Positions 5,784 through 61,657 of a DNA stretch of 64,000 nt are shown one piece after another. Both the position numbers and the translations under genes were made by a program. The number at the start of each line of letters is the position of its first letter. Within the stretch, counting starts at the first letter, position 1. The notes under the pieces are model-generated. The model saw only the letters and a list, made by a program, of their open reading frames with translations. It was not told the DNA's origin and did not search any database. This stretch comes from a virus (taxonomy: Duplodnaviria > Heunggongvirae > Uroviricota > Caudoviricetes): the IMG/VR virus record IMGVR_UViG_3300001687_001192; one strand, given 5' to 3'.

Positions 5784-6584
5784 ATGTCTATTGGAATATT
5801 TGTGCCCTGTTTTAATGTGAGACCTTATATTAGAGAATCACTAGAAAGCATTTTAAAACAAACTTACAAAGATTGGGAGCTTGTTATTATAGATGATTGT
5901 TCTACAGATGGTACTTATGAAAAACTTAAAAGTTTTCGTACGTGGCTTTCTGATGATAATTTCTCCATTCATCAAAGAGAAAGTCATTGTGGCTTAATAG
6001 GTAAAGTTAAAAACGAGGCCATCTCCAAGTTTACTAGAGAGCATGAATATATATGTCATGTTGGCTCAGATGATATAATACCAGAATATTGTTTACAAGT
6101 ATGTGTAGATTATATGGATAAACATCCAGAAATAGGAGCGTGCTGTGGAAACTTTGTATGTTTTGACGACCAAGGTAACAAATGGACTTTTCCGCATGTG
6201 GCAAACAGCGGAGACTATGATCCAAGTGTCCTTCTTCGATATATGTGTTTATTTCCCCACAGATTTTATCGTCGGTCTGTGGTAGAACAAGTTGGTGGAT
6301 ATTCAAATGAACTTAGTTCTGCTGTTGATTATGACCTTGCTTTAAAACTAGATGAGGTAACTCAAATACATAGAATAAAAGATCCAATTACATATTATTA
6401 TCGGCAACATGCACAGCAAGTTTCTACAAGAGCGCGACCCGAACAGGATGCAAATGCTAAAAAAGCCTTAAAAGCTGCCCTTGAGAGAAGAAATATAGAT
6501 GCGATTGTTAAAAATGAAAAAATGCCCTTTGAAATTAAATATATAGAAGAAGAACATTTTATATGGGGAGGCGGCGGTGAGTAG
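5784..6584 (+). CDS. Glycosyltransferase family 2
   Basis: FVPCFN, WELVIIDDCSTDGT, SDD, VGGY...VDYDL..KL, YYYRQH. Confidence 0.9.
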   Translation: MSIGIFVPCFNVRPYIRESLESILKQTYKDWELVIIDDCSTDGTYEKLKSFRTWLSDDNFSIHQRESHCGLIGKVKNEAISKFTREHEYICHVGSDDIIPEYCLQVCVDYMDKHPEIGACCGNFVCFDDQGNKWTFPHVANSGDYDPSVLLRYMCLFPHRFYRRSVVEQVGGYSNELSSAVDYDLALKLDEVTQIHRIKDPITYYYRQHAQQVSTRARPEQDANAKKALKAALERRNIDAIVKNEKMPFEIKYIEEEHFIWGGGGE

Positions 6585-7428
6585 AAAGAAAAAGACGAAA
6601 ATCTTAGTGTGTGGGTCGGCCCAGTTTTTGATATCAAATTTTATACGTTACATTTTGTATAGGTCACAAGATTATAACATTGTAAGCGTAGATAATTTAG
6701 AAAAGCCATCCGACATTAAAAGAATTTATTTTCATAAAAATCATAGGTTTTATGTTGGTGATTCATCCGATGAATATTTTATAGATAGGATATTTTATAT
6801 AGAGAGGCCTAATATAATAATATGTGGCGATGAACAGCTTGATTATGAAAAATTATTAAAAACGGCGCAAAATTTAATTAAATTTAATGTGCCTATTATT
6901 ACAATATCTCCAACCGTATGTTGTGGTGAAGGAAATGATTTATATGGGATCTATAGCTCTGTAGATAAATTTATTACAACTAATAGAGGTATGGTAATAA
7001 GGTTACCAAATAGATTTGGAATGCGACAAAGACCAAGTATGCTTGAAAAGCAAGGAGTAAATCTGGCGTATATTATGGGCTGCGTTTTAAATAAAATTTA
7101 TTTTAAAGTTAATAATGTTGAGTTACCTTGGGTATATGCTGAAGATGTTGCATCTTTTCTTTGGTATTCAATAGAGAATTATCAAAAGGGCGAGACCATT
7201 TATATGCCGCCGCTTGGATTGAAGAGTGGTAAAGATATAGTTGAAAAAGTAATTGAAATGTATAACTTAAAGTCTGTTCCACATTGCGTTGAAGAAATTC
7301 CTAATGCAAATTGTGGTAATGAAGTTTATCGTATGGTTGGATGGATTCCAGATTCACAAGATATGGAGCATGCTTTAGAGAAGACTATTAAGTGGTTTGA
7401 TGTTAATAGGTGGGCCTTTAATGAGTAA
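6577..7428 (+). CDS. Degenerate dTDP-glucose 4,6-dehydratase (RmlB)-like NAD-dependent epimerase fold
   Basis: ILVCGSAQFLISNFIRY...VDNL and LEKTIKWF..N.W resemble RmlB termini; GxxGxxG and YxxxK not intact. Confidence 0.65.
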   Translation: MSRKKKTKILVCGSAQFLISNFIRYILYRSQDYNIVSVDNLEKPSDIKRIYFHKNHRFYVGDSSDEYFIDRIFYIERPNIIICGDEQLDYEKLLKTAQNLIKFNVPIITISPTVCCGEGNDLYGIYSSVDKFITTNRGMVIRLPNRFGMRQRPSMLEKQGVNLAYIMGCVLNKIYFKVNNVELPWVYAEDVASFLWYSIENYQKGETIYMPPLGLKSGKDIVEKVIEMYNLKSVPHCVEEIPNANCGNEVYRMVGWIPDSQDMEHALEKTIKWFDVNRWAFNE

Positions 7429-7517: not shown

Positions 7518-8963
7518 ATGGCTGATGAAAAAACAATTAAAAATCGGGTGGTTGTCACAGACGAAGTCGGTGAGGTGACTCGTGTGAAGTCCGACGCCGA
7601 AATTGTTGAAGAAAACCGACAACTCGAAGAAGCTTTGCGAGCCAAAAAAGAAAAGCCAGAAGTGCCAAAACTAGATCCAAACGTTCTTGCAAAACTAAAA
7701 GAGAAATCAATGGAGGATAATAAAATGAAGGCCGTTACGAAACGTGATAGAAGCCTGTATTTCGGAATAGTCGGATTGGGACAAGCGGGCAGCCGAATCA
7801 CGGAAACGTGTTATGGGTTGGGATATGAGGCATGTGTATTCAATACTGCCACTCAAGACCTTGAACATATTAAACTTCCTGATAACAAAAAAATCTTTCT
7901 ACCATTTGCACTAGGAGGTGCTGGCAAAGAACTGGATAATGGTAGACAGGCAGTAGAACAAAATGGAGAACTTATTCTTCAAAAACTTAATGAGACTTTT
8001 GGCGACGAACAAGAAATGCTGATATTAGCTGTCTCAGGTGGCGGTGGAACGGGCTCAGGCGGCGCAGAAGCGCTTTTAGGGCTGATGGCCTCACTTGGCA
8101 AGCCGATTGGCGTAATTTATGTGCTGCCAATGGAATCTGAAGATGCGCTGAGCAAACATAACTCTGTAGTAACATTGGGTAAATTGGCCAAGATGGCAAG
8201 CACAGACGCCATCACAACGTTAATTGTTGTCGACAATGCTAAAATCGAGCTAATATATCCAGGATTGAGCAAAGCCGATTTTTGGAACACGGCTAACAAC
8301 GCCATCGTTGAGCCTCTGCATTTGTTTAATCATTTGTCTGCTATGCCAACACAATACGATAGTCTAGATTCAATGGATTTTGGAAGGATCTTTACTACAG
8401 GAGACTGCACAATTTATGGGATGTTGGAAGTAGAAGATTATATGGAGACAACAGCTATAGCAGAAGCTGTAGTAGAAAACCTAGAAGCTGGTTTGCTTAC
8501 GAACGATTTTAATCTCAAAGAAACTAGGTTTGGTGGATTTATCGTAACTGGCAGCCCAGAAGTTCTCAGAGAGCTTCCAGCTATGAACATTCATTATGCT
8601 TCCCACATGATTAGTGAAGCATGTGATTCTCCCAGCTTAGTAAGCGGCGTTTATGAAGTTCCAACCAAGGACAATATCGTTAGGGTTTATACGCTTTTTA
8701 GTGGACTTGGCTTACCGTCGGCCAGGATAGAGGCGCTACAAAAAGACGCAGGCGAAAGAATGGCGGTTCTACGAGAAAAGGAAAAATCCCGTGCAGACAA
8801 AATGAACATAGAATATGGATCTGGTGTAGATACCAAATCTAAAGCTCAAGAGGTCCATAGAATGATTCAACAAAAAAAATCAGGCTTTGGAAAATTGACC
8901 GGTAATGCTAGTAAAAAAGTGTCAGGTAGTACAAAGGTAATTAAGGATAGGAGAAAACGATGA
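7518..8963 (+). CDS. Tubulin/FtsZ-family GTPase (PhuZ/TubZ-like) with N- and C-terminal extensions
   Basis: GLGQAGSRI, signature GGGGTGSGG, VVDNAK, LDSMDF; RBS AAGGAG at 7501. Confidence 0.9.
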   Translation: MADEKTIKNRVVVTDEVGEVTRVKSDAEIVEENRQLEEALRAKKEKPEVPKLDPNVLAKLKEKSMEDNKMKAVTKRDRSLYFGIVGLGQAGSRITETCYGLGYEACVFNTATQDLEHIKLPDNKKIFLPFALGGAGKELDNGRQAVEQNGELILQKLNETFGDEQEMLILAVSGGGGTGSGGAEALLGLMASLGKPIGVIYVLPMESEDALSKHNSVVTLGKLAKMASTDAITTLIVVDNAKIELIYPGLSKADFWNTANNAIVEPLHLFNHLSAMPTQYDSLDSMDFGRIFTTGDCTIYGMLEVEDYMETTAIAEAVVENLEAGLLTNDFNLKETRFGGFIVTGSPEVLRELPAMNIHYASHMISEACDSPSLVSGVYEVPTKDNIVRVYTLFSGLGLPSARIEALQKDAGERMAVLREKEKSRADKMNIEYGSGVDTKSKAQEVHRMIQQKKSGFGKLTGNASKKVSGSTKVIKDRRKR

Positions 8964-15657: not shown

Positions 15658-15755
15658 ATTATATGTGTTTAATTTTACCCTTGTGTATGGGGTTTTAGAA
15701 CGAAGGAGATAAAATGAAGGTTAAAAATTCTAATGGAAGGAAAGGAGAACGGGAA

Positions 15756-17693
15756 ATGAGCGAAATCACAGACATTTTTTCTGCCCTTGCGAAATGTAAT
15801 GTTAAAGAGGATACCACTCCGTGGTCTGGGACTTTGAAAGATTATCTCCCTATGGTTATTGATGACCCAAATCTCAACGAGACTGCGCATGCTAGAATAT
15901 GTAGAATGATTGAAAGTAAAGGGGTAGAGTTTGAAGACGAAGAGAAAAAAGAACACCCGCGCTATAAATTCTTCACTGACGATTTGTTTGGTATTAATCA
16001 TGTAATAGAAAAAACTATGAAGTTTTTTAGAGGTGCGGCAGCAGGATCTGAAGTTAGAAAGAGGATATTGTTACTTTGGGGGCCAACCAGCTCTGGTAAA
16101 AGCGAATTTGTAATTCTATTAAAGAAGGGCTTAGAGGAGTTTTCAAAAACCAAAGAAGGAAGAGTTTTTGCAATAGATGGTTGTCCCATGTTTGAAAATC
16201 CGTTGAATGCTATACCAATTCCGCAGAGGAAACTGCTGAAAGAAAAATATGACCTTGTAATTGAGGGAGAGTTGTGTCCGCGTTGTGCTTATAAATTAGC
16301 ACACGATCCGAAATTTTCTGGTAAGTGGGAAAATATTCCTGTTAAAAGAATATTTCTTTCTGAAATGAATAGAACAGGCATTGGTACTTTTCAACCGGGG
16401 GATAGAAAAAGCCAATCGCAGTCAGAACTTGTTGGCTCTGTGAATTTTGCGCAATTGGAAGAATATGGTGTGGAATCACATCCACTCGCTTATAATTTTG
16501 ACGGAGAATTAAATGTTGCAAACAGAGGCTTAATGGAATTTATTGAGCTATTAAAAGTAGATCCCAAATTCCGACACATACTTTTAACCCTTACACAGGA
16601 GAAGAGAATCAAAGTAGAACGTTTTCCTCTTATTTTTGCTGATTTGTTTCCAATTGCACACAGTAATGAAACCGAATTTGTAAAATTCAAAGCCGATAAA
16701 GCCGAGGAAGCCTTACATGATCGAACCAGTTTAATGAAATTCCCCTACAATCTAATCCTCAACGAAGAAGTAAGAATCTATGAGAAACTTATTTGTCATA
16801 CGCCGGGCTTTAAAAATATTCATATTGCTCCACATACATTAAAAATTGCCTCGATGTTTGCTATTTTGTCCCGACTTACGGAACCAAAAGATAAAAGTAT
16901 TACACTGCTGCAAAAAATGCAACTTTATAATGGGGAAGAAGTAGACGGGTTTAGCAAAGAAAATATAAAGGATCTACAAAAAGAATCAGAGCGGGAGGGG
17001 CTAGATGGTATTTCTCCAAGATATATCGTTAATTGCCTATCTGACTGCTTCGCTAAGCCTGGAGTTACATATGTTACCCCCATAAGTGCTTTGCGTAGTA
17101 TAAAAGAGAACCTTCCAACTAATGCGAAACTAGAAAATGATGAAGTGTCTAGACTTGAGAATTTAATTTCAGATTGCATCGTTGAATATAATAAAATTGC
17201 AACCAACGAGGTACAAAAAGCGTTTTTCGTGAATTTTGAGCGCGAAATTAAAAACTTATTAGAGAACTATTTGGATAATGTTGGTGCCTACTTAGATGAC
17301 CACAAGACGAAGAACGAGTGGGGTGATATGGTGGATCCAGATGAAAACCTGATGAGAAGTGTTGAAGAAAAGGTAGAAATTACTAACCCTGGTAAAGACT
17401 CATTCCGTGAAGAGGTTTATCGTAAAATGTTGGAATCTAAGAATAAAACTGGTGAATATGGTTATCAAAATCATCCAAAACTAAGGGAAGCGCTGGAAAA
17501 ACAATTGTTTGACGAACGTGCAGATGTAATACGTCTTACAGTATCTTCGAGAAATCCAGACCCTGAAGCTTTAAGAAAGCTTAATGAAGTGATCGATGCG
17601 CTGGTTGTACATTATGGATATAATGCGGACAGTGCTAATGAGTTATTACGATATGTAAATAATATTATGTCCAAGACCGCTAACAAGGGGTAA
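15756..17693 (+). CDS. prkA: PrkA/YeaG-family AAA+ serine protein kinase
   Basis: LLLWGPTSSGKS, GELNVANRG.MEF.E..K, AHSNE, LHDR, GISPRY; RBS AAGGAG. Confidence 0.92.
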   Translation: MSEITDIFSALAKCNVKEDTTPWSGTLKDYLPMVIDDPNLNETAHARICRMIESKGVEFEDEEKKEHPRYKFFTDDLFGINHVIEKTMKFFRGAAAGSEVRKRILLLWGPTSSGKSEFVILLKKGLEEFSKTKEGRVFAIDGCPMFENPLNAIPIPQRKLLKEKYDLVIEGELCPRCAYKLAHDPKFSGKWENIPVKRIFLSEMNRTGIGTFQPGDRKSQSQSELVGSVNFAQLEEYGVESHPLAYNFDGELNVANRGLMEFIELLKVDPKFRHILLTLTQEKRIKVERFPLIFADLFPIAHSNETEFVKFKADKAEEALHDRTSLMKFPYNLILNEEVRIYEKLICHTPGFKNIHIAPHTLKIASMFAILSRLTEPKDKSITLLQKMQLYNGEEVDGFSKENIKDLQKESEREGLDGISPRYIVNCLSDCFAKPGVTYVTPISALRSIKENLPTNAKLENDEVSRLENLISDCIVEYNKIATNEVQKAFFVNFEREIKNLLENYLDNVGAYLDDHKTKNEWGDMVDPDENLMRSVEEKVEITNPGKDSFREEVYRKMLESKNKTGEYGYQNHPKLREALEKQLFDERADVIRLTVSSRNPDPEALRKLNEVIDALVVHYGYNADSANELLRYVNNIMSKTANKG

Positions 17694-17695
17694 TA

Positions 17696-18877
17696 ATGAG
17701 TGATGATTTTAAAGATATTTGGAGTTTGCGCAAACCTGGCGCTAAAGATTCAAAGCGTCATAAAGAGCGCATACGGGAAGCTATAAAAGAAAATCTTCAC
17801 GATCTCATCTCTGAGGAAAATATTATTTCGTCAAGCGGTGGAAAGAAAGTCAAGGTACCAATAAAATACCTCGACATGTGGCGGTTTAAATTCGGGAAAA
17901 ATAACAAGCATAAGGGTGTTGGACATGGTAAGGGCGCACCAGGCGATGTTATTTATAAAGAGGACCCAATGAGTGGGCAAGGAAAAGCTGGTGATAAGGC
18001 CGGTGAAGAGGTATACGAAGAAGAAGTAGAAATCGAAGAAATCATAGAGATGATGCTCGAAAACCTAGATTTGCCATGGATGGAAGAAAAGGAAAACGTT
18101 AGGGAAATAGAAACTGAAGAAACAGTATTCCAAGATATAGCTGAAAGGGGGTTGCCAGCAAACATAGATAAGAGAAGAACAATTTTGCGCAATCTTAAAC
18201 GAAATGCACTTAAGGGCAAAATGCGAATTGGTGGTTTTGCCCTAGACGATCTGCGCTACAGGGTGTGGGAGCAAGTCATAGAAAAACATTCAAATGCCGC
18301 TGTGTTTTTATTGATGGATAGATCTGGGAGTATGACATCCGAAAAAAAATATATAGTAAAATCTTTTTTCTGGTGGATGGTGAAATTTCTAGAGAGAAAA
18401 TATGAAAACGTTGAGTTGATTTTCATTGCACATGATACAGAGGCGCATGAGGTCGAAGAAGAGAACTTTTTTAAAATTTCACACGGCGGTGGCACAATGG
18501 TCAGCTCCGCGTTTAAACTGGCTCAGACCATTATTGAAGACAGATATTCTCATAAAACCTGGAACAATTATGTGTTTGCATTTTCTGATGGCGACAATTG
18601 GCCCGAAGATAATGTAAGATGTGTTCAGTCCATAAAGGACATTTTACCGTTTTGTCAGGCCGTCGGCTATGGAGAGGTTGATATAAACGACAGTTTTTAC
18701 AAATGGGGCAGTTCTACCAGTTCTTCAATGTGGTCTAATTTGGCGCAAATTTTTGAAAAAGATACAGAATTATCTGAAAATGAAAGGTTTATAGTGGCAA
18801 CAATAGAGAAGCGAGAAGATATCTACGCCGGCCTTAGAAAGTTTTTGAAAGGAGTCGATAAACAAAATGAAAGATAG
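17696..18877 (+). CDS. yeaH: YeaH/YhbH (DUF444) vWA-domain protein
   Basis: RHKERIREAIK, DLRYR, MIDAS DRSGSM, GGTMVSSA, FSDGDNW. Confidence 0.9.
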   Translation: MSDDFKDIWSLRKPGAKDSKRHKERIREAIKENLHDLISEENIISSSGGKKVKVPIKYLDMWRFKFGKNNKHKGVGHGKGAPGDVIYKEDPMSGQGKAGDKAGEEVYEEEVEIEEIIEMMLENLDLPWMEEKENVREIETEETVFQDIAERGLPANIDKRRTILRNLKRNALKGKMRIGGFALDDLRYRVWEQVIEKHSNAAVFLLMDRSGSMTSEKKYIVKSFFWWMVKFLERKYENVELIFIAHDTEAHEVEEENFFKISHGGGTMVSSAFKLAQTIIEDRYSHKTWNNYVFAFSDGDNWPEDNVRCVQSIKDILPFCQAVGYGEVDINDSFYKWGSSTSSSMWSNLAQIFEKDTELSENERFIVATIEKREDIYAGLRKFLKGVDKQNER

Positions 18878-20297
18878 AATGGAAGAAATTTTACGGCTTG
18901 CAAAAAATCTCGGGCTAGATCCTTATCCAATTGTATATGAAACTGTAGAAAGAACTACAATGTTCAACGTATGTGCATACGGTCTTCCGACTAGGGCTAG
19001 ACATTGGAGCTATGGACGATCTTATGATCATCAAAAAACACACGGCGAAATGGGGCTATCAAAAGTCTATGAAATTATTTTGAATAATGACCCCTCATAC
19101 GCATTCCTGTTAGATACCAACAGTGAGGTCCAGAATCTTTTTATTGCTGCGCATTGCATCGGTCACTCGGATTTTTTTAAAAATAACTGTATGTTTGCAG
19201 GTTCTAATCGAAATATGATACGACATGCCGCACAACATGCTGGAAGAATTGAAGAATATATAGAACGATTTGGTTTCGAAAAGGTTGAGCACATTATGGA
19301 TATAGGTTTTGCACTTGATAACAATATCGACTGGAACAAGGGGTTGCACAGAAAGCCATATGGACAAAAGCATGTCGTGACCAAATACCGCAAGCGCGGA
19401 GAGTTTGATGATTTATTATATAGAGAGCAAAAGCCGACTGTAATTAGGAAGACGGTAAATGACAAGTTCCCGCCGCGTCCCGAACAAGATTTGCTATGGT
19501 TTTTAGTTAACTACGCTCCGCTTGATGATTGGGAGCGCGACGTTCTAGATATTATCAGAGAAGAATCGTTTTATTTTTATCCACAAAAAATGACTAAAAT
19601 TATGAACGAAGGTTGGGCTAGTTATTGGCACGCGGAGTTAATGTTCAGATACGAAGGTCTTACTCCCGAAGAGCATATGGATTTTGTGCGCGACCATGAA
19701 AAAGTTGTTCAGCCTGGCATGAACCCGTTTAGAATAAATCCGTATTTTCTTGGATACAGAATTTTTAAGGATATAGAAAAGAGATGGGATGCAAAACATG
19801 GGAAAGGAGCTGGCCGCGAAAAAATGTTTCAGGTTAGGTGTGAGGATGATGACATTTCGTTTCTGAGAAACTATCTTACTACAGAACTGGTCGAAGAATT
19901 AGAGCTATTCACGTATGGATATATGAAAGATTATCCCAAGGACCACGGCGGTTCAAAATATATCATAATTAAGGAAAGGCTCAGGGATGAAATCGTTGAA
20001 AGCATGATTAAACCGCTGTATAATGGCGGAGCCCCCAAAATTTCAATAACAGGGGTTGGTCAAGAGGGCGAGCTAATTTTAAAACACGAGAGTGAAGAAA
20101 TATGTACATTGGATTTTCGCTTTGCTGAAAAAACTATTGAGTATTTGTGGGATTTGTGGGCCGCTCCCATCGAACTGCATGTAAAAGACGATCCTGGTGA
20201 TGACGTCGTGTTGTGTTTTGATGAAGCGGGTTTCTACCAAAAAGAGCGGATAGATGAGCTTAATTTTGGTGAAGAAGACATAGAGTTGGAGATATAA
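18867..20297 (+). CDS. spoVR: SpoVR/YcgB family protein
   Basis: GLPTRARHWSYG, AHCIGHSDFFKNN, TKIMNEGWASYWH, NPYFLG, DDISFLRNYLT. Confidence 0.92.
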   Translation: MKDRMEEILRLAKNLGLDPYPIVYETVERTTMFNVCAYGLPTRARHWSYGRSYDHQKTHGEMGLSKVYEIILNNDPSYAFLLDTNSEVQNLFIAAHCIGHSDFFKNNCMFAGSNRNMIRHAAQHAGRIEEYIERFGFEKVEHIMDIGFALDNNIDWNKGLHRKPYGQKHVVTKYRKRGEFDDLLYREQKPTVIRKTVNDKFPPRPEQDLLWFLVNYAPLDDWERDVLDIIREESFYFYPQKMTKIMNEGWASYWHAELMFRYEGLTPEEHMDFVRDHEKVVQPGMNPFRINPYFLGYRIFKDIEKRWDAKHGKGAGREKMFQVRCEDDDISFLRNYLTTELVEELELFTYGYMKDYPKDHGGSKYIIIKERLRDEIVESMIKPLYNGGAPKISITGVGQEGELILKHESEEICTLDFRFAEKTIEYLWDLWAAPIELHVKDDPGDDVVLCFDEAGFYQKERIDELNFGEEDIELEI

Positions 20298-53499: not shown

Positions 53500-53830
53500 T
53501 CAGATTTATCTGACCCAAACGTACTAATATCATTACACTTTTTAAGCCTAAATACCCCCTCTGCAACTAACCAATATCATTAAAGAAATATACATACAAA
53601 TATTATACAAGAACCCACCACAAAGGTATCCATAAATATCCAAATAAAGAGCATATAAAAAAGACATTACATACACACATAAGAGTAATATATACTACCA
53701 CTACTCCCATTATCACTTACTTATACTAACTATAAGAATAAAATACTACAACATTACCCTAAAATAACTCATGATGTGAAATAACATTACCCAAAATAGC
53801 TCTATAATATGAAACTCTATACAAAATTCC
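53500..53830. other. A/C-rich, G-poor non-coding spacer with short repeats, at a compositional boundary
   Basis: AATATCATTA x2 (53526, 53573); AACATTACCC(T)AAAATA x2 (53750, 53783); followed by CCCTT-TTCG-GGGGG hairpin. Confidence 0.6.
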
Positions 53831-54016
53831 CTTTTCGGGGGGGGCCGTGCGCGGTGGGGACACTGTGCTTTTATGGCACCCGTGAAGAATTTGCAACAAG
53901 TGTGAAATTAATTCACTAAACTTAACGTTGCGAAATCATTAAACTTCCAAGAACGTGAAGCTTTTCCGCTTTCAGGGGTTGAAGGCATCGCTCTGTCTGC
54001 GACGGGCGGTGGTTTC

Positions 54017-54511: not shown

Positions 54512-54556
54512 AGACCCATCACCCACAGGAGGAGCACGCAAGACCATCCGGTACAA

Positions 54557-54628
54557 GGGACATGGACGCTGGGCGTCCCATATACATCCGTGTATGTGGT
54601 GCTGTGTTCGATACCAGGTGTCCCTCTA
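54557..54628 (+). ncRNA. tRNA-shaped RNA, degenerate (4-nt anticodon-position loop)
   Basis: GGGACAT/GTGTCCC acceptor; GGACG/CGTCC arm; CATATAC/GTGTATG arm; TTCGATA loop in a bulged T-stem. Confidence 0.5.
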
Positions 54629-54729: not shown

Positions 54730-54830
54730 GGACGTATAGCTCAATGGTAGAGCACTCGTGGGACCTATGTGTGATCGATTACACATAGGTTTTCTCCAGG
54801 AGGATATAGGTTCGATTCCTATTGCGTTCG
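54730..54830 (+). ncRNA. tRNA-shaped RNA with anticodon arm replaced by a long hairpin
   Basis: GGACGTA/TGCGTTC; TAGCTCAATGGTAGAGC D-arm; ATAGG-TTCGATT-CCTAT; ACCTATGTGTGAT/ATTACACATAGGT insert. Confidence 0.7.
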
Positions 54831-55103: not shown

Positions 55104-55219
55104 GGTATAGATCTCGGCTAGGTGGTTGACCTTAGCAGGTTGATCAAACTCGCAGGACAGAGATCTGGATTGGTTTGGGCCACCGATCTTTGTGGGTTCG
55201 ACTCCCACATGTACCGCCA
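55104..55219 (+). ncRNA. 116-nt tRNA-like RNA with multibranch body and encoded CCA
   Basis: GGTATA/TGTACC-G-CCA; GTGGG-TTCGACT-CCCAC; AGATCTC/GAGATCT; GGATTGGT/ACCGATCT. Confidence 0.6.
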
Positions 55220-57747: not shown

Positions 57748-57823
57748 GAAACCTAACCTGCTCTGGGCAGGCTCCATGATAAGGACATGGAGGAAAGCGG
57801 TTCGAATCCGCTAGGTTTCGCCA
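57748..57823 (+). ncRNA. Non-canonical tRNA (7-bp anticodon stem, loop AT-AAG-GA, 5-nt D-loop), encoded CCA
   Basis: GAAACCT/AGGTTTC-G-CCA; CCTGC/GCAGG; CTCCATG/CATGGAG; AGCGG-TTCGAAT-CCGCT. Confidence 0.75.
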
Positions 57824-57839
57824 TCAACAAGGAGGAGGC

Positions 57840-58052
57840 ATGGAGGTCGAGCGTTTCAAGTGCCCAGGGTGTGGGGCACTAAACGCTCCTGAGATGCAAT
57901 TGGAAAAGCATCGCGGGAGATTGGGCTTTTTGTTGTACCGCAAAGAGCCCGGTCGTGATGGGTTATACGGTGATGAGGACTGCGCTTTTGTGGCGTGGTG
58001 CGATAAGTGCCAGGCGACTCATCATGACGGGCGTTACTCTGCGCCGAAGTAA
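57840..58052 (+). CDS. Small CxxC...CxxC protein
   Basis: AAGGAGGAGG RBS; CPGC, CDKC. Confidence 0.7.
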   Translation: MEVERFKCPGCGALNAPEMQLEKHRGRLGFLLYRKEPGRDGLYGDEDCAFVAWCDKCQATHHDGRYSAPK

Positions 58053-58069
58053 CAACTAAGGAGGAGGTG

Positions 58070-58189
58070 GTGTACCACGTTTACATCGTATATTGCATCT
58101 TGGTATGGATGGAGTACACGATCACATCCATCATTCCTGGCGGTAGGACTTTGGCGATCATCGATGCAATCTTCAAGAAACTTCTGTAG
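58070..58189 (+). CDS. 39-aa hydrophobic peptide (not in ORF track)
   Basis: AAGGAGGAGG RBS, GTG start; MYHVYIVYCILVWMEYTITSIIPGGRTLAIIDAIFKKLL. Confidence 0.55.
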   Translation: MYHVYIVYCILVWMEYTITSIIPGGRTLAIIDAIFKKLL

Positions 58190-58202
58190 CCCGGATTTCA
58201 AC

Positions 58203-58278
58203 GAGACCTAGCCCATATGTTGGTGGGGACCGGCGATCTTTGATCGCGGTTGTGGTGGTTCGACTCCATCAGGTTTCG
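58203..58278 (+). ncRNA. Non-canonical tRNA-shaped RNA with TTT at the anticodon position
   Basis: GAGACCT/AGGTTTC-G; CCCA/TGGG; ACCG(G)CGA/TCGCGGT around TC-TTT-GA; GGTGG-TTCGACT-CCATC. Confidence 0.65.
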
Positions 58279-58297
58279 CTGCCGAAAGGAGACGGTA

Positions 58298-58408
58298 ATG
58301 GAGTGTCCAGTGTGCAAAGGTAAGGGAGAAGTCTACAGCGCACTCCATGGTAAGAAGACGTGTCCTTGCTGCTTTGGGCGCGGGCATGTGAAGAAGCGTA
58401 ACAGATAA
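58298..58408 (+). CDS. 36-aa DnaJ-type zinc-finger mini-protein (not in ORF track)
   Basis: AAGGAG RBS; CPVCKGKG...CPCCFGRG. Confidence 0.7.
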   Translation: MECPVCKGKGEVYSALHGKKTCPCCFGRGHVKKRNR

Positions 58409-58422
58409 AAGGAGGTATCCGT

Positions 58423-58629
58423 ATGGACAGACTAATCCGGTCTCTCGGATGGCAACTTGGAAAGAAGTTGCCACAGGGACCCTTGTGGTCCGAAGAGCCT
58501 CACCAGGAGGACTTGGGAAGGCTCCGCGACCTGCTTGGCCGCGAGCCGACCCTTGATGAGGCGGAGACCTTTTCCTGGGAGTTCAGGCTTTCCAGGAGAA
58601 GGCAGCAGGCGACGGCGTACCGGGGGTAG
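58423..58629 (+). CDS. Hypothetical protein
   Basis: AAAGGAGGT RBS. Confidence 0.7.
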   Translation: MDRLIRSLGWQLGKKLPQGPLWSEEPHQEDLGRLRDLLGREPTLDEAETFSWEFRLSRRRQQATAYRG

Positions 58630-58719
58630 AGTACAGCGACCGGCTAGCATGGTGGTCTTGGGACCAAGCTGGTCGCGCCGGGTGCAGCAAATCAATCTGC
58701 CTTTAAAACAGGCTTCCAC

Positions 58720-58969
58720 GCGCAAAATTGTGAGATCGCGCACAGTGTGGAAGTGCGCTAGAGTTCGGTTGCTGCATGGTAAAGTGGGAGGGTGCTTTAC
58801 CAATCTATTGGCACCGGCGCGTTAGACTCTGCTCGTCTTTGGACGGCGTGAGGTGTGCCCTCGAAAGGGGTTTACAAGAGAAGGCTAACGCAGGTGGGAT
58901 CGCAGGAAGTGGGGCATCTCACCAACTTTTAGTTTTGGGTATAATGTAATTCGGCGTGGCAATTTGCGC
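58720..58969 (+). ncRNA. Putative 250-nt multi-stem RNA
   Basis: Closing GCGCAAAATTG/CAATTTGCGC; inner GCGCAC/GTGCGC, GGTAAAG/CTTTACC, GCGTTAG/CTAACGC, GGTGGGAT/ATCTCACC, GAAA-capped hairpin. Confidence 0.5.
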
Positions 58970-58986
58970 ATACTAGTATGCATTAT

Positions 58987-59063
58987 CGACCCTTAGCGCA
59001 GTCCGGTAGCGCAGGCGTCTTATAAGCGTCAGGTCCCGGGTTCGAATCCCGGAGGGTCGACCA
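58987..59063 (+). tRNA. tRNA-Ile(TAT), second copy, divergent body
   Basis: CGACCCT/AGGGTCG, loop CT-TAT-AA, ends ACCA. Confidence 0.88.
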
Positions 59064-59076
59064 AAAGGAGGACAGG

Positions 59077-59337
59077 ATGAAGTACACTATCTTGCTGATA
59101 ATTCTTGCCATTCGTTGGGCGGGTCGAGAGGAGGGCTTCGAACTGCCGAATCTCATTTCCTATATCCTCACGGATATGCACTACCCTATTTCTCCACCAG
59201 AGGTGGGAAAGTTGTTGGGTGAGTTGGAGAGAGACGGGCTGATAGAAGAGGCTTCTGGGCGGCCGGATCTCACTAGCAAAGGGGATGAGTACCTCTCAGA
59301 CAAGTTAAAAGAGAGGGCTCTACGTCTACACAGATAA
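59077..59337 (+). CDS. Small protein, possible winged-helix fold
   Basis: AAAGGAGG RBS; ISPPEVGKLLGELERDGLIE...DLTSKG. Confidence 0.65.
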   Translation: MKYTILLIILAIRWAGREEGFELPNLISYILTDMHYPISPPEVGKLLGELERDGLIEEASGRPDLTSKGDEYLSDKLKERALRLHR

Positions 59338-59341
59338 AGAT

Positions 59342-59440
59342 GGGCCTGTAGCTCAATTGGTAGAGGGGAAACATGGGGTGACCGCAATGCCTAGTGGCCC
59401 CGCTGGGAGGTTGCCGGTTCGAATCCGGCCAGGTCCACTA
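59342..59440 (+). ncRNA. tRNA-shaped RNA with expanded non-canonical anticodon region
   Basis: GGGCCTG/CAGGTCC-A-CTA; TAGCTCAATTGGTAGAG; GCCGG-TTCGAAT-CCGGC. Confidence 0.65.
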
Positions 59441-59640
59441 CAAAGAAATTAACGGTTCCCACACGGATGATCCCTAGATCCTCATCTAACGTGGGTGTGT
59501 GTACAAAGGGTGCGCGATACAGGCAGCGTTGTTGGCGCATTGGCAGGCTCGGAGCTGTCCTGACACTTGCAGGTAGAGATCTTCCATTCTAGGGCTCTGG
59601 AAGCTCTACTATTGTTATTTTCCGTATAAGGAAGTGATTC

Positions 59641-59946
59641 ATGTGTAAGGATGGAACGACCGAGAGTGTCGAGCAGCTAAGGGACGAAGTGGTGAGACTA
59701 CGTAAGTTGGAGTCTGACACCTGGAACTCTTACAAGAAACTGTGGAATACCTACAGCCAGCTCAAAAAACATAACGACGAGGTGTGGGAAGCCTATGAGA
59801 AATCGCACCACGCGCATTGCAGTGATTTGGATGAGCTGAGTGAGCTACATGCTAAGCAAAGGCGGCAGTGGTTATTTTTTGCGCTGGGTCTCTCAGTGTT
59901 CTGGGCCATCATCAACTTGCTAACGATATGGTATTATAGCTGCTAG
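59641..59946 (+). CDS. Coiled-coil protein with C-terminal transmembrane segment
   Basis: Heptad-like N-terminus; WLFFALGLSVFWAIINLLTIW. Confidence 0.7.
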   Translation: MCKDGTTESVEQLRDEVVRLRKLESDTWNSYKKLWNTYSQLKKHNDEVWEAYEKSHHAHCSDLDELSELHAKQRRQWLFFALGLSVFWAIINLLTIWYYSC

Positions 59947-59975
59947 CTTTTTCACCCGACAACAAGGAGAGCATA

Positions 59976-60254
59976 ATGCTCATCAAAATTCCTAGCAGCA
60001 GACGTGGACACAGATGCGACTGCTGTCAGGTCGCAATTGCGACTCTTAAACATACTTCTGGCATCTTTGTCCAGTTGGTGTGTGATGGGTGCAAGCAGCG
60101 CTATTGGTGGAGGTTTGGGATAGAGGACGTGGTGTCGGAAGACACGGAGTCCGTGTACCTCCGCAGCCCTGGGCTGCTAGGACTTAACGGAAGGACATAC
60201 CGTTGCTGCAAGAAGTGCTGCAAGCGGTGGGAGAATTGTAGTTGTAGGAGGTAG
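59976..60254 (+). CDS. Cys-rich hypothetical protein
   Basis: AAGGAG RBS. Confidence 0.65.
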   Translation: MLIKIPSSRRGHRCDCCQVAIATLKHTSGIFVQLVCDGCKQRYWWRFGIEDVVSEDTESVYLRSPGLLGLNGRTYRCCKKCCKRWENCSCRR

Positions 60255-60255
60255 C

Positions 60256-60516
60256 GTGCGAGAGATACCGGAAAAACTTTGGACTACGTCCGACTGTTTA
60301 ACATGTCGACACATAGGACGTTGGCCAGATGGGAACGTTGAAGTGCCAAGGATCTACGTCTACGCGGGCTGGATACGATGTGGTAGGTGGCGCAGTCCTG
60401 GACGCTGGGCATATCCAAACTCGCATGATGTGAAGTGGAACAGCGGGCCATGCGGGGACTATGAGCGTTCTAGATGGGCCGCTTTTAGAAAGTGGCTTAA
60501 AACGATACTTAAGTAG
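60256..60516 (+). CDS. Cys/Trp-rich hypothetical protein
   Basis: AGGAGGT RBS, GTG start. Confidence 0.6.
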   Translation: MREIPEKLWTTSDCLTCRHIGRWPDGNVEVPRIYVYAGWIRCGRWRSPGRWAYPNSHDVKWNSGPCGDYERSRWAAFRKWLKTILK

Positions 60517-60522
60517 CAGTAT

Positions 60523-60594
60523 GGCCCTGTGGTCCAGCGGTCAGGACATCGGTCTTTCACGCCGATAACCCGAGTTCGACTCTCGGCAGGGTCA
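60523..60594 (+). tRNA. tRNA-Glu(TTC), CCA not encoded
   Basis: GGCCCTG/CAGGGTC, loop CT-TTC-AC, followed by CTA. Confidence 0.88.
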
Positions 60595-60614
60595 CTAAGG
60601 AAAGGAGGTACATC

Positions 60615-60833
60615 ATGTTTGACAGAGTGGATCTGCACGTGATGCATCCCGATGGAATGATGGAGCGAGTGGTTGTGCTTCATCAGGAGGCCGATTTCTT
60701 TGGTTTGGTGGCCAGGGAAATCGCCTTGCAAAAGAGGCGCGGTTGTGTCGTCAGGGGAGTTTCGACGGAGCAACATGCGCTCATCCCGCCGATGCTCATG
60801 CCGGGAAGACTTCCGGTTGGAGCCTTGAGATGA
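60615..60833 (+). CDS. Hypothetical protein
   Basis: AAAGGAGGT RBS. Confidence 0.7.
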   Translation: MFDRVDLHVMHPDGMMERVVVLHQEADFFGLVAREIALQKRRGCVVRGVSTEQHALIPPMLMPGRLPVGALR

Positions 60834-60894
60834 GTTTCTCCGTTCTCTAAAAACGGAGTGGTGGAGGAGCGACGGGGAAACCTGTCGCCCCCTT

Positions 60895-60995
60895 GGGCCA
60901 AAGATGCTGGTGCATCACGACCTCCGTAACGGGTCGTATGGAGTTCGATTCTCTTTAGCCTTGGAGGTGTGCAGGTTCGATCCCTGCTTGGCCCA
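60895..60995 (+). ncRNA. Non-canonical tRNA-shaped RNA, GTA at the anticodon position, second T-loop-like hairpin
   Basis: GGGCCAA/TTGGCCC-A; GATGC/GCATC; ACGACCT/GGGTCGT around CC-GTA-AC; GGAG-TTCGATT-CTCT; GCAGG-TTCGATC-CCTGC. Confidence 0.7.
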
Positions 60996-61052
60996 CGGCC
61001 CTCCCGTTAGCGACGGGGTCAGGGAATTACGAGCCGGTTAGCGACCGGCGCT

Positions 61053-61203
61053 GGTCGATTCTCGTGCTTCATGGTTTTTGGGACTTATTGTGTCCGCTGC
61101 AAGTTCTAGGCTATGACAGCAGGGAGAGCGCCTCTAGGATAGGCGGAGTTCTTGGCACTAGCCATGTGCAAACGGTGCGCAGGTTCAATTCCTGCATCGA
61201 CCA
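61053..61203 (+). ncRNA. 151-nt RNA with tRNA acceptor/T-arm and multibranch insert
   Basis: GGTCGAT/ATCGACC-A; GCAGG-TTCAATT-CCTGC; CATGGTT/AGCCATG; CGCCT/AGGCG. Confidence 0.55.
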
Positions 61204-61307: not shown

Positions 61308-61657
61308 GGGCTCGACAAGGTTTCGACGTGGGTGATGGAGCATAGGGATGCAAGCCGGGGATGGTTACAGCCTCGTTAAAAAGTGACCACACAATAACTT
61401 CCAACGAAGTTGAATTCAGAGCTGCTGCATAGCAGTTCCGTTCTACCAGCTCTCCCGTCTGTGACGGCTGGATAGAGCGACGACGGACAGGCTGGGCGCT
61501 AGCAATCTCGGCTAGCTAGCGCTAAGATTCAGTCGGGAAACGAAGTCAAGAAGCCTGCTGCTGGGCGTCTCGGTGGGTATACAAAACATCAGCTAAGCTT
61601 GTAGAATCTCGTGTGAAGCACTTGCGGACCCGGGTTCGATTCCCGGCGAGTCCACGA
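61308..61657 (+). ncRNA. ssrA: tmRNA, tag (A)SNEVEFRAAA
   Basis: GGGCTCG/CGAGTCC with G3-U70; GGTTTCGAC; ATAACT then tag 61400-61432; CCGGG-TTCGATT-CCCGG. Confidence 0.92.

Follow-up and report, generated by a model that had tools for sequence, protein, structure and literature searches.

Setting of the tRNA-like genes

The DNA analyzed here is a 64,000-nt stretch (the window) of IMG/VR virus record IMGVR_UViG_3300001687_001192, which forms a portion of a ~461-kb uncultured phage contig (ENA sample ERZ27279932). From ~53.83 kb to the window end it carries an RNA-rich island with everything on the + strand, and this island contains three transfer RNA (tRNA)-like elements, E1, E2 and E3 (Table 1), all of them intergenic. 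An earlier note on this DNA had described the three as non-canonical tRNA-shaped genes displaying AAG, TTT and GTA; the coordinates and loop triplets were correct, and the predicted folds support the description. E1-E3 are real, non-canonical, tRNA-derived genes. In the zipped-core build that we propose for them, the amino-acid-accepting half is intact (7-bp acceptor, 5-bp T stem and canonical T loop), and the core is rebuilt, with the D arm turned into a short hairpin with a GG mini loop, A8 taking the place of U8 and an anticodon arm of about seven layers.

Table 1. Positions of E1-E3, of further island and phage features (window coordinates), and of compact tRNA genes of phage phiCbK (coordinates within the slice JX100813 44000-58000).
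Feature	Position	Strand	Remarks
E1	57748-57823	+	76-nt zipped-core tRNA-like gene
E1 acceptor stem	57748-57754 / 57813-57819	+	7 bp
E1 linker	57755-57756	+	A8A9
E1 D hairpin	57757-57771	+	5 bp with 5-nt loop, or 6 bp with 3-nt loop
E1 long stem	57772-57778 / 57786-57792	+	7 bp, all Watson-Crick
E1 anticodon loop	57779-57785	+	AUAAGGA, 7 nt; AAG at 57781-57783
E1 variable loop	57793-57795	+	GAA, 3 nt
E1 T arm	57796-57812	+	5-bp stem, loop UUCGAAU
E1 G73	57820	+	
E1 CCA	57821-57823	+	Encoded
E2	58203-58278	+	76-nt tRNA-like gene, no encoded CCA
E2 acceptor stem	58203-58209 / 58271-58277	+	7 bp, G3:U70
E2 linker	58210-58211	+	AG
E2 D arm	58212-58227	+	5 bp with 6-nt loop, or 4 bp with 8-nt loop
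E2 second arm	58229-58250	+	Bulged G
E2 anticodon loop	58237-58243	+	UCUUUGA; UUU at 58239-58241; C33
E2 T arm	58254-58270	+	Loop UUCGACU
E2 G73	58278	+	
E3	60895-60995	+	101-nt tRNA-like gene
E3 acceptor stem	60895-60901 / 60988-60994	+	7 bp, perfect
E3 D hairpin	60903-60916	+	GAUGC-UGGU-GCAUC; 5 bp, loop UGGU
E3 long stem	60917-60923 / 60931-60937	+	7 bp, 6 Watson-Crick and 1 G-U
E3 anticodon loop	60924-60930	+	CCGUAAC; GUA at 60926-60928; C33
E3 extra region	60938-60970	+	33 nt
E3 second T-arm-like hairpin	60940-60954	+	GGAG-UUCGAUU-CUCU, inside extra region
E3 T arm	60971-60987	+	Perfect; loop UUCGAUC
E3 A73	60995	+	
Sister element	54556-54625	+	E1-type scaffold, 4-nt loop AUCC, so no anticodon
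tRNA frame, altered anticodon arm	54730-54830	+	Rfam tRNA 46.9 bits, above threshold
tRNA frame, altered anticodon arm	59342-59438	+	Rfam tRNA 40.6 bits, above threshold
Element with tRNA-like ends	55104-55219		116 nt
Canonical tRNA-Lys(UUU)	55761	+	Island
UUAGCGA hairpin pair	60996-61075		
tmRNA	61308-61657	+	Rfam 165 bits
PrkA / DUF444 (YeaH-like) / SpoVR triad	15714-20297		
phiCbK Thr(GGU)	5956-6028 of slice		Compact; unannotated in JX100813
phiCbK His(GUG)	6608-6675 of slice		4-bp D stem, 4-nt loop, 7-layer anticodon arm; unannotated
phiCbK Ala(UGC)	6684-6755 of slice		G3:U70, A73, CCA, 7-layer arm with one constant mismatch; unannotated
phiCbK Ser(GCU)	6943-7025 of slice		Class II, 7-bp D stem, UGG loop, G73; unannotated
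phiCbK Asn(GUU)	8233-8307 of slice		AA linker, 6-bp D stem, AGG loop, G73, CCA; unannotated

Architecture of E1-E3

In a canonical tRNA, positions 8 and 33 are U, the D loop measures 8-11 nt on a stem of 3-4 bp, and the anticodon stem has 5 bp. All three elements have 7/7 acceptor pairs, 5/5 T-stem pairs and a canonical UUCRANY T loop, combined with A8 in place of U8, D loops of 3-6 nt on 5-6-bp stems and a second arm of ~7 layers. None of them presents the canonical core (U8, D arm, 5-bp anticodon stem and U33), with U33 occurring in E1 only. The GG-containing mini D loop is present in E1 and E3 and borderline in E2. A 7-nt anticodon loop with U33 and a purine at position 37 on a stem of 5-7 layers is found in E1; C33 occurs in E2 together with a closable loop, and in E3 together with a competing fold. 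The 7-nt loop on a 7-bp stem that had been reported for all three elements thus stands in full for E1, holds for E2 only if a G is bulged and with the loop predicted to be closed, and is present in E3 next to the competing fold. The term "compact" used in the earlier note suits the core and not the length of E3, given its extra region.

The E1 cloverleaf is both the minimum-energy and the centroid structure (z = -3.96), and each pair of its long stem has a probability of 0.99-1.0. Its D hairpin (CCUGC-UCUGG-GCAGG) is followed by the next stem with no linker. ARAGORN called E1 as tRNA-Leu(aag). An 8/4 allo-tRNA or a fold like that of selenocysteine tRNA (tRNASec) was rejected, as an A8-U65 pair is possible in E1 alone and excluded for E2 and E3. 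An identical copy of E1 was found in one other contig (sample ERZ27275805), the sole further contig to carry it.

The second arm of E2 reaches seven pairs only with one G bulged (4 bp + bulge + 3 bp). The flanks of its loop are complementary (U32-A38 and C33-G37, p ~1.0), giving a UUU triloop on a 10-pair helix as the minimum-energy fold (z = -2.86); the closed form has a predicted energy of -32.3 kcal/mol and the open 7-nt loop -28.3 or -26.9 kcal/mol. ARAGORN called E2 as tRNA-Lys(ttt). The acceptor stem differs from that of E1 solely by A3 to G3, which creates G3:U70, and G73 is common to both, as is the 3' strand AGGTTTC-G that the earlier note had correctly recognized. G3:U70 is the major alanine identity determinant. 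The same pair was also seen in the acceptor stem of the island's transfer-messenger RNA (tmRNA). Recent duplication as the origin of E1 and E2 was rejected: outside the near-identical acceptor stem they are 64% alike, not nearer to each other than to other tRNAs.

In E3, a competing fold that pairs CCUCC with GGAGG is predicted at -43.8 kcal/mol vs -41.9 kcal/mol for the cloverleaf arm, a gap of 1.9 kcal/mol, and the 7-bp anticodon arm accounts for ~2% of the ensemble (fold z = -3.41). ARAGORN made no call for E3. We rejected a clean tandem duplication of the 3' half as the source of its second T-arm-like hairpin, since the two T-arm-plus-acceptor segments match at 11/25 positions only.

Non-random structure and database standing

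Structure and non-randomness can be read directly from the sequences. When the cores of E1 and E3 were shuffled 200,000 times each, abutting perfect hairpins, defined as a D hairpin of at least 5 bp followed by a stem of at least 7 bp with a 7-nt loop, arose 4 and 13 times, respectively. Frames combining a 7/7 acceptor with a 5/5 T stem numbered 11 in the 10-kb island vs 1 in the other 54 kb. Fold z-scores ranged from -2.9 to -4.0 for E1-E3 vs -1.4 to -3.2 for the six canonical island tRNAs. Because of these shuffle odds, the concentration of frames in the island and the fold z-scores, E1-E3 are most likely maintained structures and not decaying sequence.

The elements stand low in databases. 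All three fall below the Rfam gathering scores (29 bits for RF00005, tRNA; 47 bits for RF01852, tRNA-Sec). E2 scored 22.1 bits as tRNA. E1 (22.2 bits) and E3 (23.9 bits) matched tRNA-Sec best, owing to a D stem that is long and a D loop that is short; overlapping lower clan matches are suppressed, so the RF00005 scores of E1 and E3 are at most 22.2 and 23.9 bits. MAFFT was unable to give a structural alignment of E1-E3, and a covariance model built from E1 alone fails to pick out the architecture, scoring canonical tRNAs as high as E2. With blastn against 50,697 phage records, the only matches were to canonical tRNAs or to fragments of the T arm, and no relative came up. In IMG/VR, the upstream protein, the exact E1 segment, a degenerate E1/E2 pattern and the 5' segment of the tmRNA had no match, nor did the degenerate E1/E2 pattern in JGI metagenomes. 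Both flanking proteins are orphans, matching only themselves among 5.8 billion proteins.

The sub-threshold Rfam scores and the lack of relatives that would demonstrate constraint could be expected of decaying tRNA-gene duplicates with no present function, as could C33 in two of the three loops and the bulge in E2, and the weaker second T-like hairpin of E3 may be a relic of partial duplication. We nevertheless regard decay as improbable. It would break pairs, yet the stems are extended and essentially perfect; the z-scores equal or beat those of canonical neighbors, the shuffle odds are ~1e-5 to 1e-4, and selection maintains this design in other phages (see below).

The island and its other tRNA-shaped elements

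The zipped scaffold is also used in the island without a decoding loop. In the sister element, a 6-bp D hairpin (GGACGC-UGG-GCGUCC) abuts a 7-bp stem, and the T arm is off-register. Two further tRNA frames have a long hairpin or an expanded loop, ~44 nt instead of 15, in the place of the anticodon arm. We read E1-E3 as the tRNA-like end of a graded island family that runs on to such anticodon-less elements. A separate 116-nt element combines a tRNA-like acceptor (6/7 pairs), a perfect T arm and GCCA with a large non-tRNA interior. Just 3' of E3 and 5' of the tmRNA lie two adjoining hairpins (CCCG...CGGG and GCCGG...CCGGC) with the common 7-nt loop UUAGCGA.

Six canonical tRNAs (Ile-UAU twice, Met-CAU, Lys-UUU, Glu-UUC and Val-UAC) and a tmRNA complete the RNA inventory of the island. 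The tmRNA tag predicted by ARAGORN, VPFYQLSRL, is not among the recognised tags. The remaining island content consists of short orphan open reading frames (ORFs) with strong ribosome-binding sites, ten of which gave no informative match in Pfam and PHROGs. Upstream, the first 53.8 kb of the window have a GC content of 34-48% and carry jumbo-phage genes: PrkA, DUF444, SpoVR, ribonucleotide reductase and a tubulin-like protein, together with UvsW-like and DnaB-like helicases, PhoH-PIN, ThyX and topoisomerase IB. The PrkA/DUF444/SpoVR triad is intact in this phage genome. GC content steps from ~36% to ~52% within a few tens of bases (window 53800-53860), and the small ORFs of the island prefer AAG, GAG and GUG/GUC, which differs from the AT-rich remainder of the phage. 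Composition and codon usage suggest that the tRNA/tmRNA island is a foreign module. No tRNA enzymes were found within the 64-kb window.

E1 and E2 each start 7-13 nt past a stop codon and end 16-20 nt ahead of the next start codon, with a ribosome-binding site and an ORF directly 3' of them. A promoter and terminator scan around E1-E3 stayed at background level, with none convincing. Because the elements lie 7-20 nt from small same-strand ORFs and have no convincing promoter or terminator of their own, E1-E3 are most likely co-transcribed with the flanking ORFs as a polycistronic transcript, from which ribonuclease P and 3' tRNA-processing enzymes would release them, also splitting the mRNAs. 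Expression, processing, charging and interaction of E1-E3 with nucleases are what we would, at most, infer from the sequences.

Compact tRNAs in cultured phages

The tRNA cluster of phage phiCbK holds five compact tRNA genes in the gaps between annotated tRNAs (Table 1). Their identity elements fit the anticodon (G3:U70 and A73 for Ala, G73 for Asn and Ser), and the related record of CcrBL10 (MH588544) annotates compact genes as tRNA-His and tRNA-Ala. Across five phiCbK-like phages, the His and Ala types are 96.5% paired vs 37-52% in slid controls, and 9 pairs changed on both sides. The Asn type, which also occurs in Pseudomonas phage phiK7A1 and Phaeobacter phage MD18, shows 97% pairing with double-sided changes in 12 pairs, counted over three distinct sequences. 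Taking the His/Ala and Asn sets together, slid controls had 30-53% of cells paired. In Rfam, the compact Ala gene scored 23.2 bits, and His, Asn and Thr were not listed (at or below gathering). Two phiCbK tRNA-Lys genes of 87-91 nt with long extra arms were seen in the same cluster. Since this build is overlooked or scored too low by the usual tRNA finders and by Rfam, the tRNA repertoires of phages are underestimated.

Decoding capacity

The triplets AAG, UUU and GUA would read CUU, AAA and UAY. Bacterial tRNA-Leu has a class II build. E1 lacks class II features and has A34; its anticodon loop, with U33 and with G37 following G36, appears credible, and its identity elements look wrong for leucine and argue against that assignment. 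Because G73, a leucyl-tRNA synthetase (LeuRS) antideterminant (PMC9976931), blocks LeuRS, E1 is an unlikely leucine acceptor, and the Leu tRNA proposed in the earlier note is not supported. E2 has the anticodon determinants of lysyl-tRNA synthetase (U35 and U36), but it also has G73, C33, a closable loop and G3:U70, and its Lys identity is doubtful. For E3, the points against decoding are C33, the very long extra arm and the competing fold. Since only one of the three loops carries U33, the E2 loop is self-complementary and the identity of E1 is unlike its anticodon, decoding is doubtful. We tentatively lean towards E1-E3 being stable tRNA mimics with mixed and mostly doubtful decoding capacity; judged from sequence, the three do not form a coordinated set of decoders for Leu, Lys and Tyr.

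Several observations weigh against this preference. In the AT-rich phage genes, CUU makes up 20% of Leu codons, AAA 74% of Lys codons and UAY all Tyr codons, and the canonical island tRNAs likewise read A-ending codons. E1 joins its U33 and G37 to an encoded CCA, as in 4/6 canonical island tRNAs, and the identity set of bacterial tRNA-Tyr (G1-C72, A73, G34, U35, long extra arm) is present in E3. One phiCbK tRNA-Ile (7791-7866 of the slice), canonical in other respects, also has C33. By analogy with the phiCbK types, a hairpin D arm and a lengthened anticodon arm each seem compatible with function; because both features are found in conserved, probably working phage tRNAs, the build itself is no argument against decoding. 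Neither a low Rfam score nor C33 is disqualifying, since the one is seen in conserved phiCbK-type tRNAs and the other in that tRNA-Ile.

These observations would suit working zipped-core decoders for CUU, AAA and UAY, whose rebuilt arms would make them poor substrates for host tRNA-cleaving nucleases. The zipped D arm (A8A9, 6 bp and a 3-nt loop) and the 7-layer arm are kept by compensatory changes in cultured phages, where conserved compact tRNAs are likewise at or below Rfam gathering, and phage tRNA variants escape the nuclease AriB through anticodon-stem changes (PMC12409363). We nonetheless consider such decoders rather unlikely. G73, A34 and the absence of a class II build count against E1, and C33, the 33-nt extra arm and the competing fold against E3; in E2 the loop can close, position 33 is C and the stem is bulged, and the island already has a canonical tRNA-Lys(UUU). 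Moreover, none of the cultured-phage comparators combines the two-nt linker and 5-6-bp D stem with a 7-bp anticodon stem, fully paired as in E1. Should E1-E3 decode, bacterial translation would tolerate a wider range of tRNA structures than is known, and new orthogonal tRNA scaffolds would be at hand. Should they not, large phages would be using the tRNA shape for something other than decoding, either in RNA processing or as mimics in host-phage conflict centred on tRNAs.

Possible links to tRNA-cleaving defenses

The background on defense nucleases given in the earlier note was right: AriB of the PARIS system cleaves tRNA-Lys(UUU), T5 variants escape it (PMC11464382, PMC12409363), and PtuAB of retron Eco7 depletes tRNA-Tyr (PMC11555353). 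AriB cuts the anticodon stem between positions 40 and 41. Its recognition also takes in the D loop and the sequence of the anticodon stem (PMC12409363). The regions rebuilt in E1-E3 are those that AriB cuts or reads, a correspondence that is no more than suggestive. One might envisage that rebuilt tRNA bodies (hairpin D arm, A8, an anticodon arm longer by two pairs and C33) enter translation or bind defense nucleases, yet can no longer be cut by enzymes whose recognition depends on the anticodon arm and D loop. We attach a low probability to this idea; if true, escape or decoying would here be achieved through structure, where T5 is known to rely on point mutations.

A related proposal, that E1-E3 are dedicated decoys, has them as uncharged mimics showing Leu, Lys and Tyr loops and titrating anticodon nucleases or other tRNA-binding factors. 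The 7-nt loops on very stable stems, with identity elements that are off, would agree with such a role, and some overexpressed viral tRNAs possibly inhibit AriB (PMC12409363). However, the E2 loop would not be displayed if closed, the D loop and anticodon-stem sequence that AriB reads (PMC12409363) are both remodelled in E1-E3, and in the sister elements there is no loop that could be displayed. Dedicated decoys are in our view improbable.

Comparison with known systems

Altered arm lengths can function in tRNAs, as the earlier note had argued from pyrrolysine tRNA (tRNAPyl) and tRNASec, and as is also seen in mitochondrial (mt) tRNASer(UCN) (PMC7609411) and in the conserved compact phage tRNAs. 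tRNAPyl and mammalian mt-tRNASer(UCN) resemble E1-E3 in their elongated anticodon stem, 3-nt variable loop and small D loop (PMC7609411); M. alvus tRNAPyl has a broken anticodon stem, as does E2, and tRNAPyl shares G73 and G1:C72 with E1. Both differ in having an anticodon stem of 6 bp, not 7, and 0-1 nt between the acceptor and D stems. tRNAPyl further lacks G18G19 and the T-psi-C motif and has a CUA anticodon, and no pyrrolysyl-tRNA synthetase is known for this phage. tRNASec (RF01852) is similar in its 6-bp D stem with a 4-nt loop, 6-bp anticodon stem and long extra arm, whereas its acceptor/T stack is 8/5 or 9/4 (13 bp) vs 7/5 in E1 and E3, and its anticodon is UCA vs AAG and GUA.

The T5-type variants that bypass PARIS and retron Eco7 are phage Lys and Tyr tRNAs with an anticodon arm unlike that of the host (PMC11464382, PMC12409363, PMC11555353). 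They keep the canonical cloverleaf, altered by point changes only, and their decoding is proven, whereas E1-E3, known from sequence alone, have the whole core rebuilt. Mycobacteriophage tRNAs have likewise been predicted to be nuclease-insensitive (PMC10264068).

The closest resemblance is to the phiCbK-type tRNAs. As in E1-E3, their 7/5 acceptor/T stack is intact, their T loop is canonical, and their D arm is reduced to a hairpin of 4-7 bp capped by a GG loop of 3-4 nt. E1 and the Asn type agree in the AA linker and in a D hairpin of 6 bp with a 3-nt loop; the His and Ala types approach the build of E1-E3 through an anticodon arm of seven layers next to a variable loop of 2-3 nt; and the Ser type, as a class II tRNA whose D arm is zipped, resembles E3. 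The phiCbK-type tRNAs differ in that the compact ones have U33, whereas E2 and E3 have C33, and in that their 7-layer arms go together with a linker of 0-1 nt and a D stem of 4 bp. Conservation has been demonstrated for these comparators, and the 33-nt extra arm sets E3 apart from them. E1-E3 add a new form to a phage tRNA build that has been little described and is only partly annotated in GenBank, and the cultured phiCbK-type phages, as their nearest analogues, offer an immediate experimental system.

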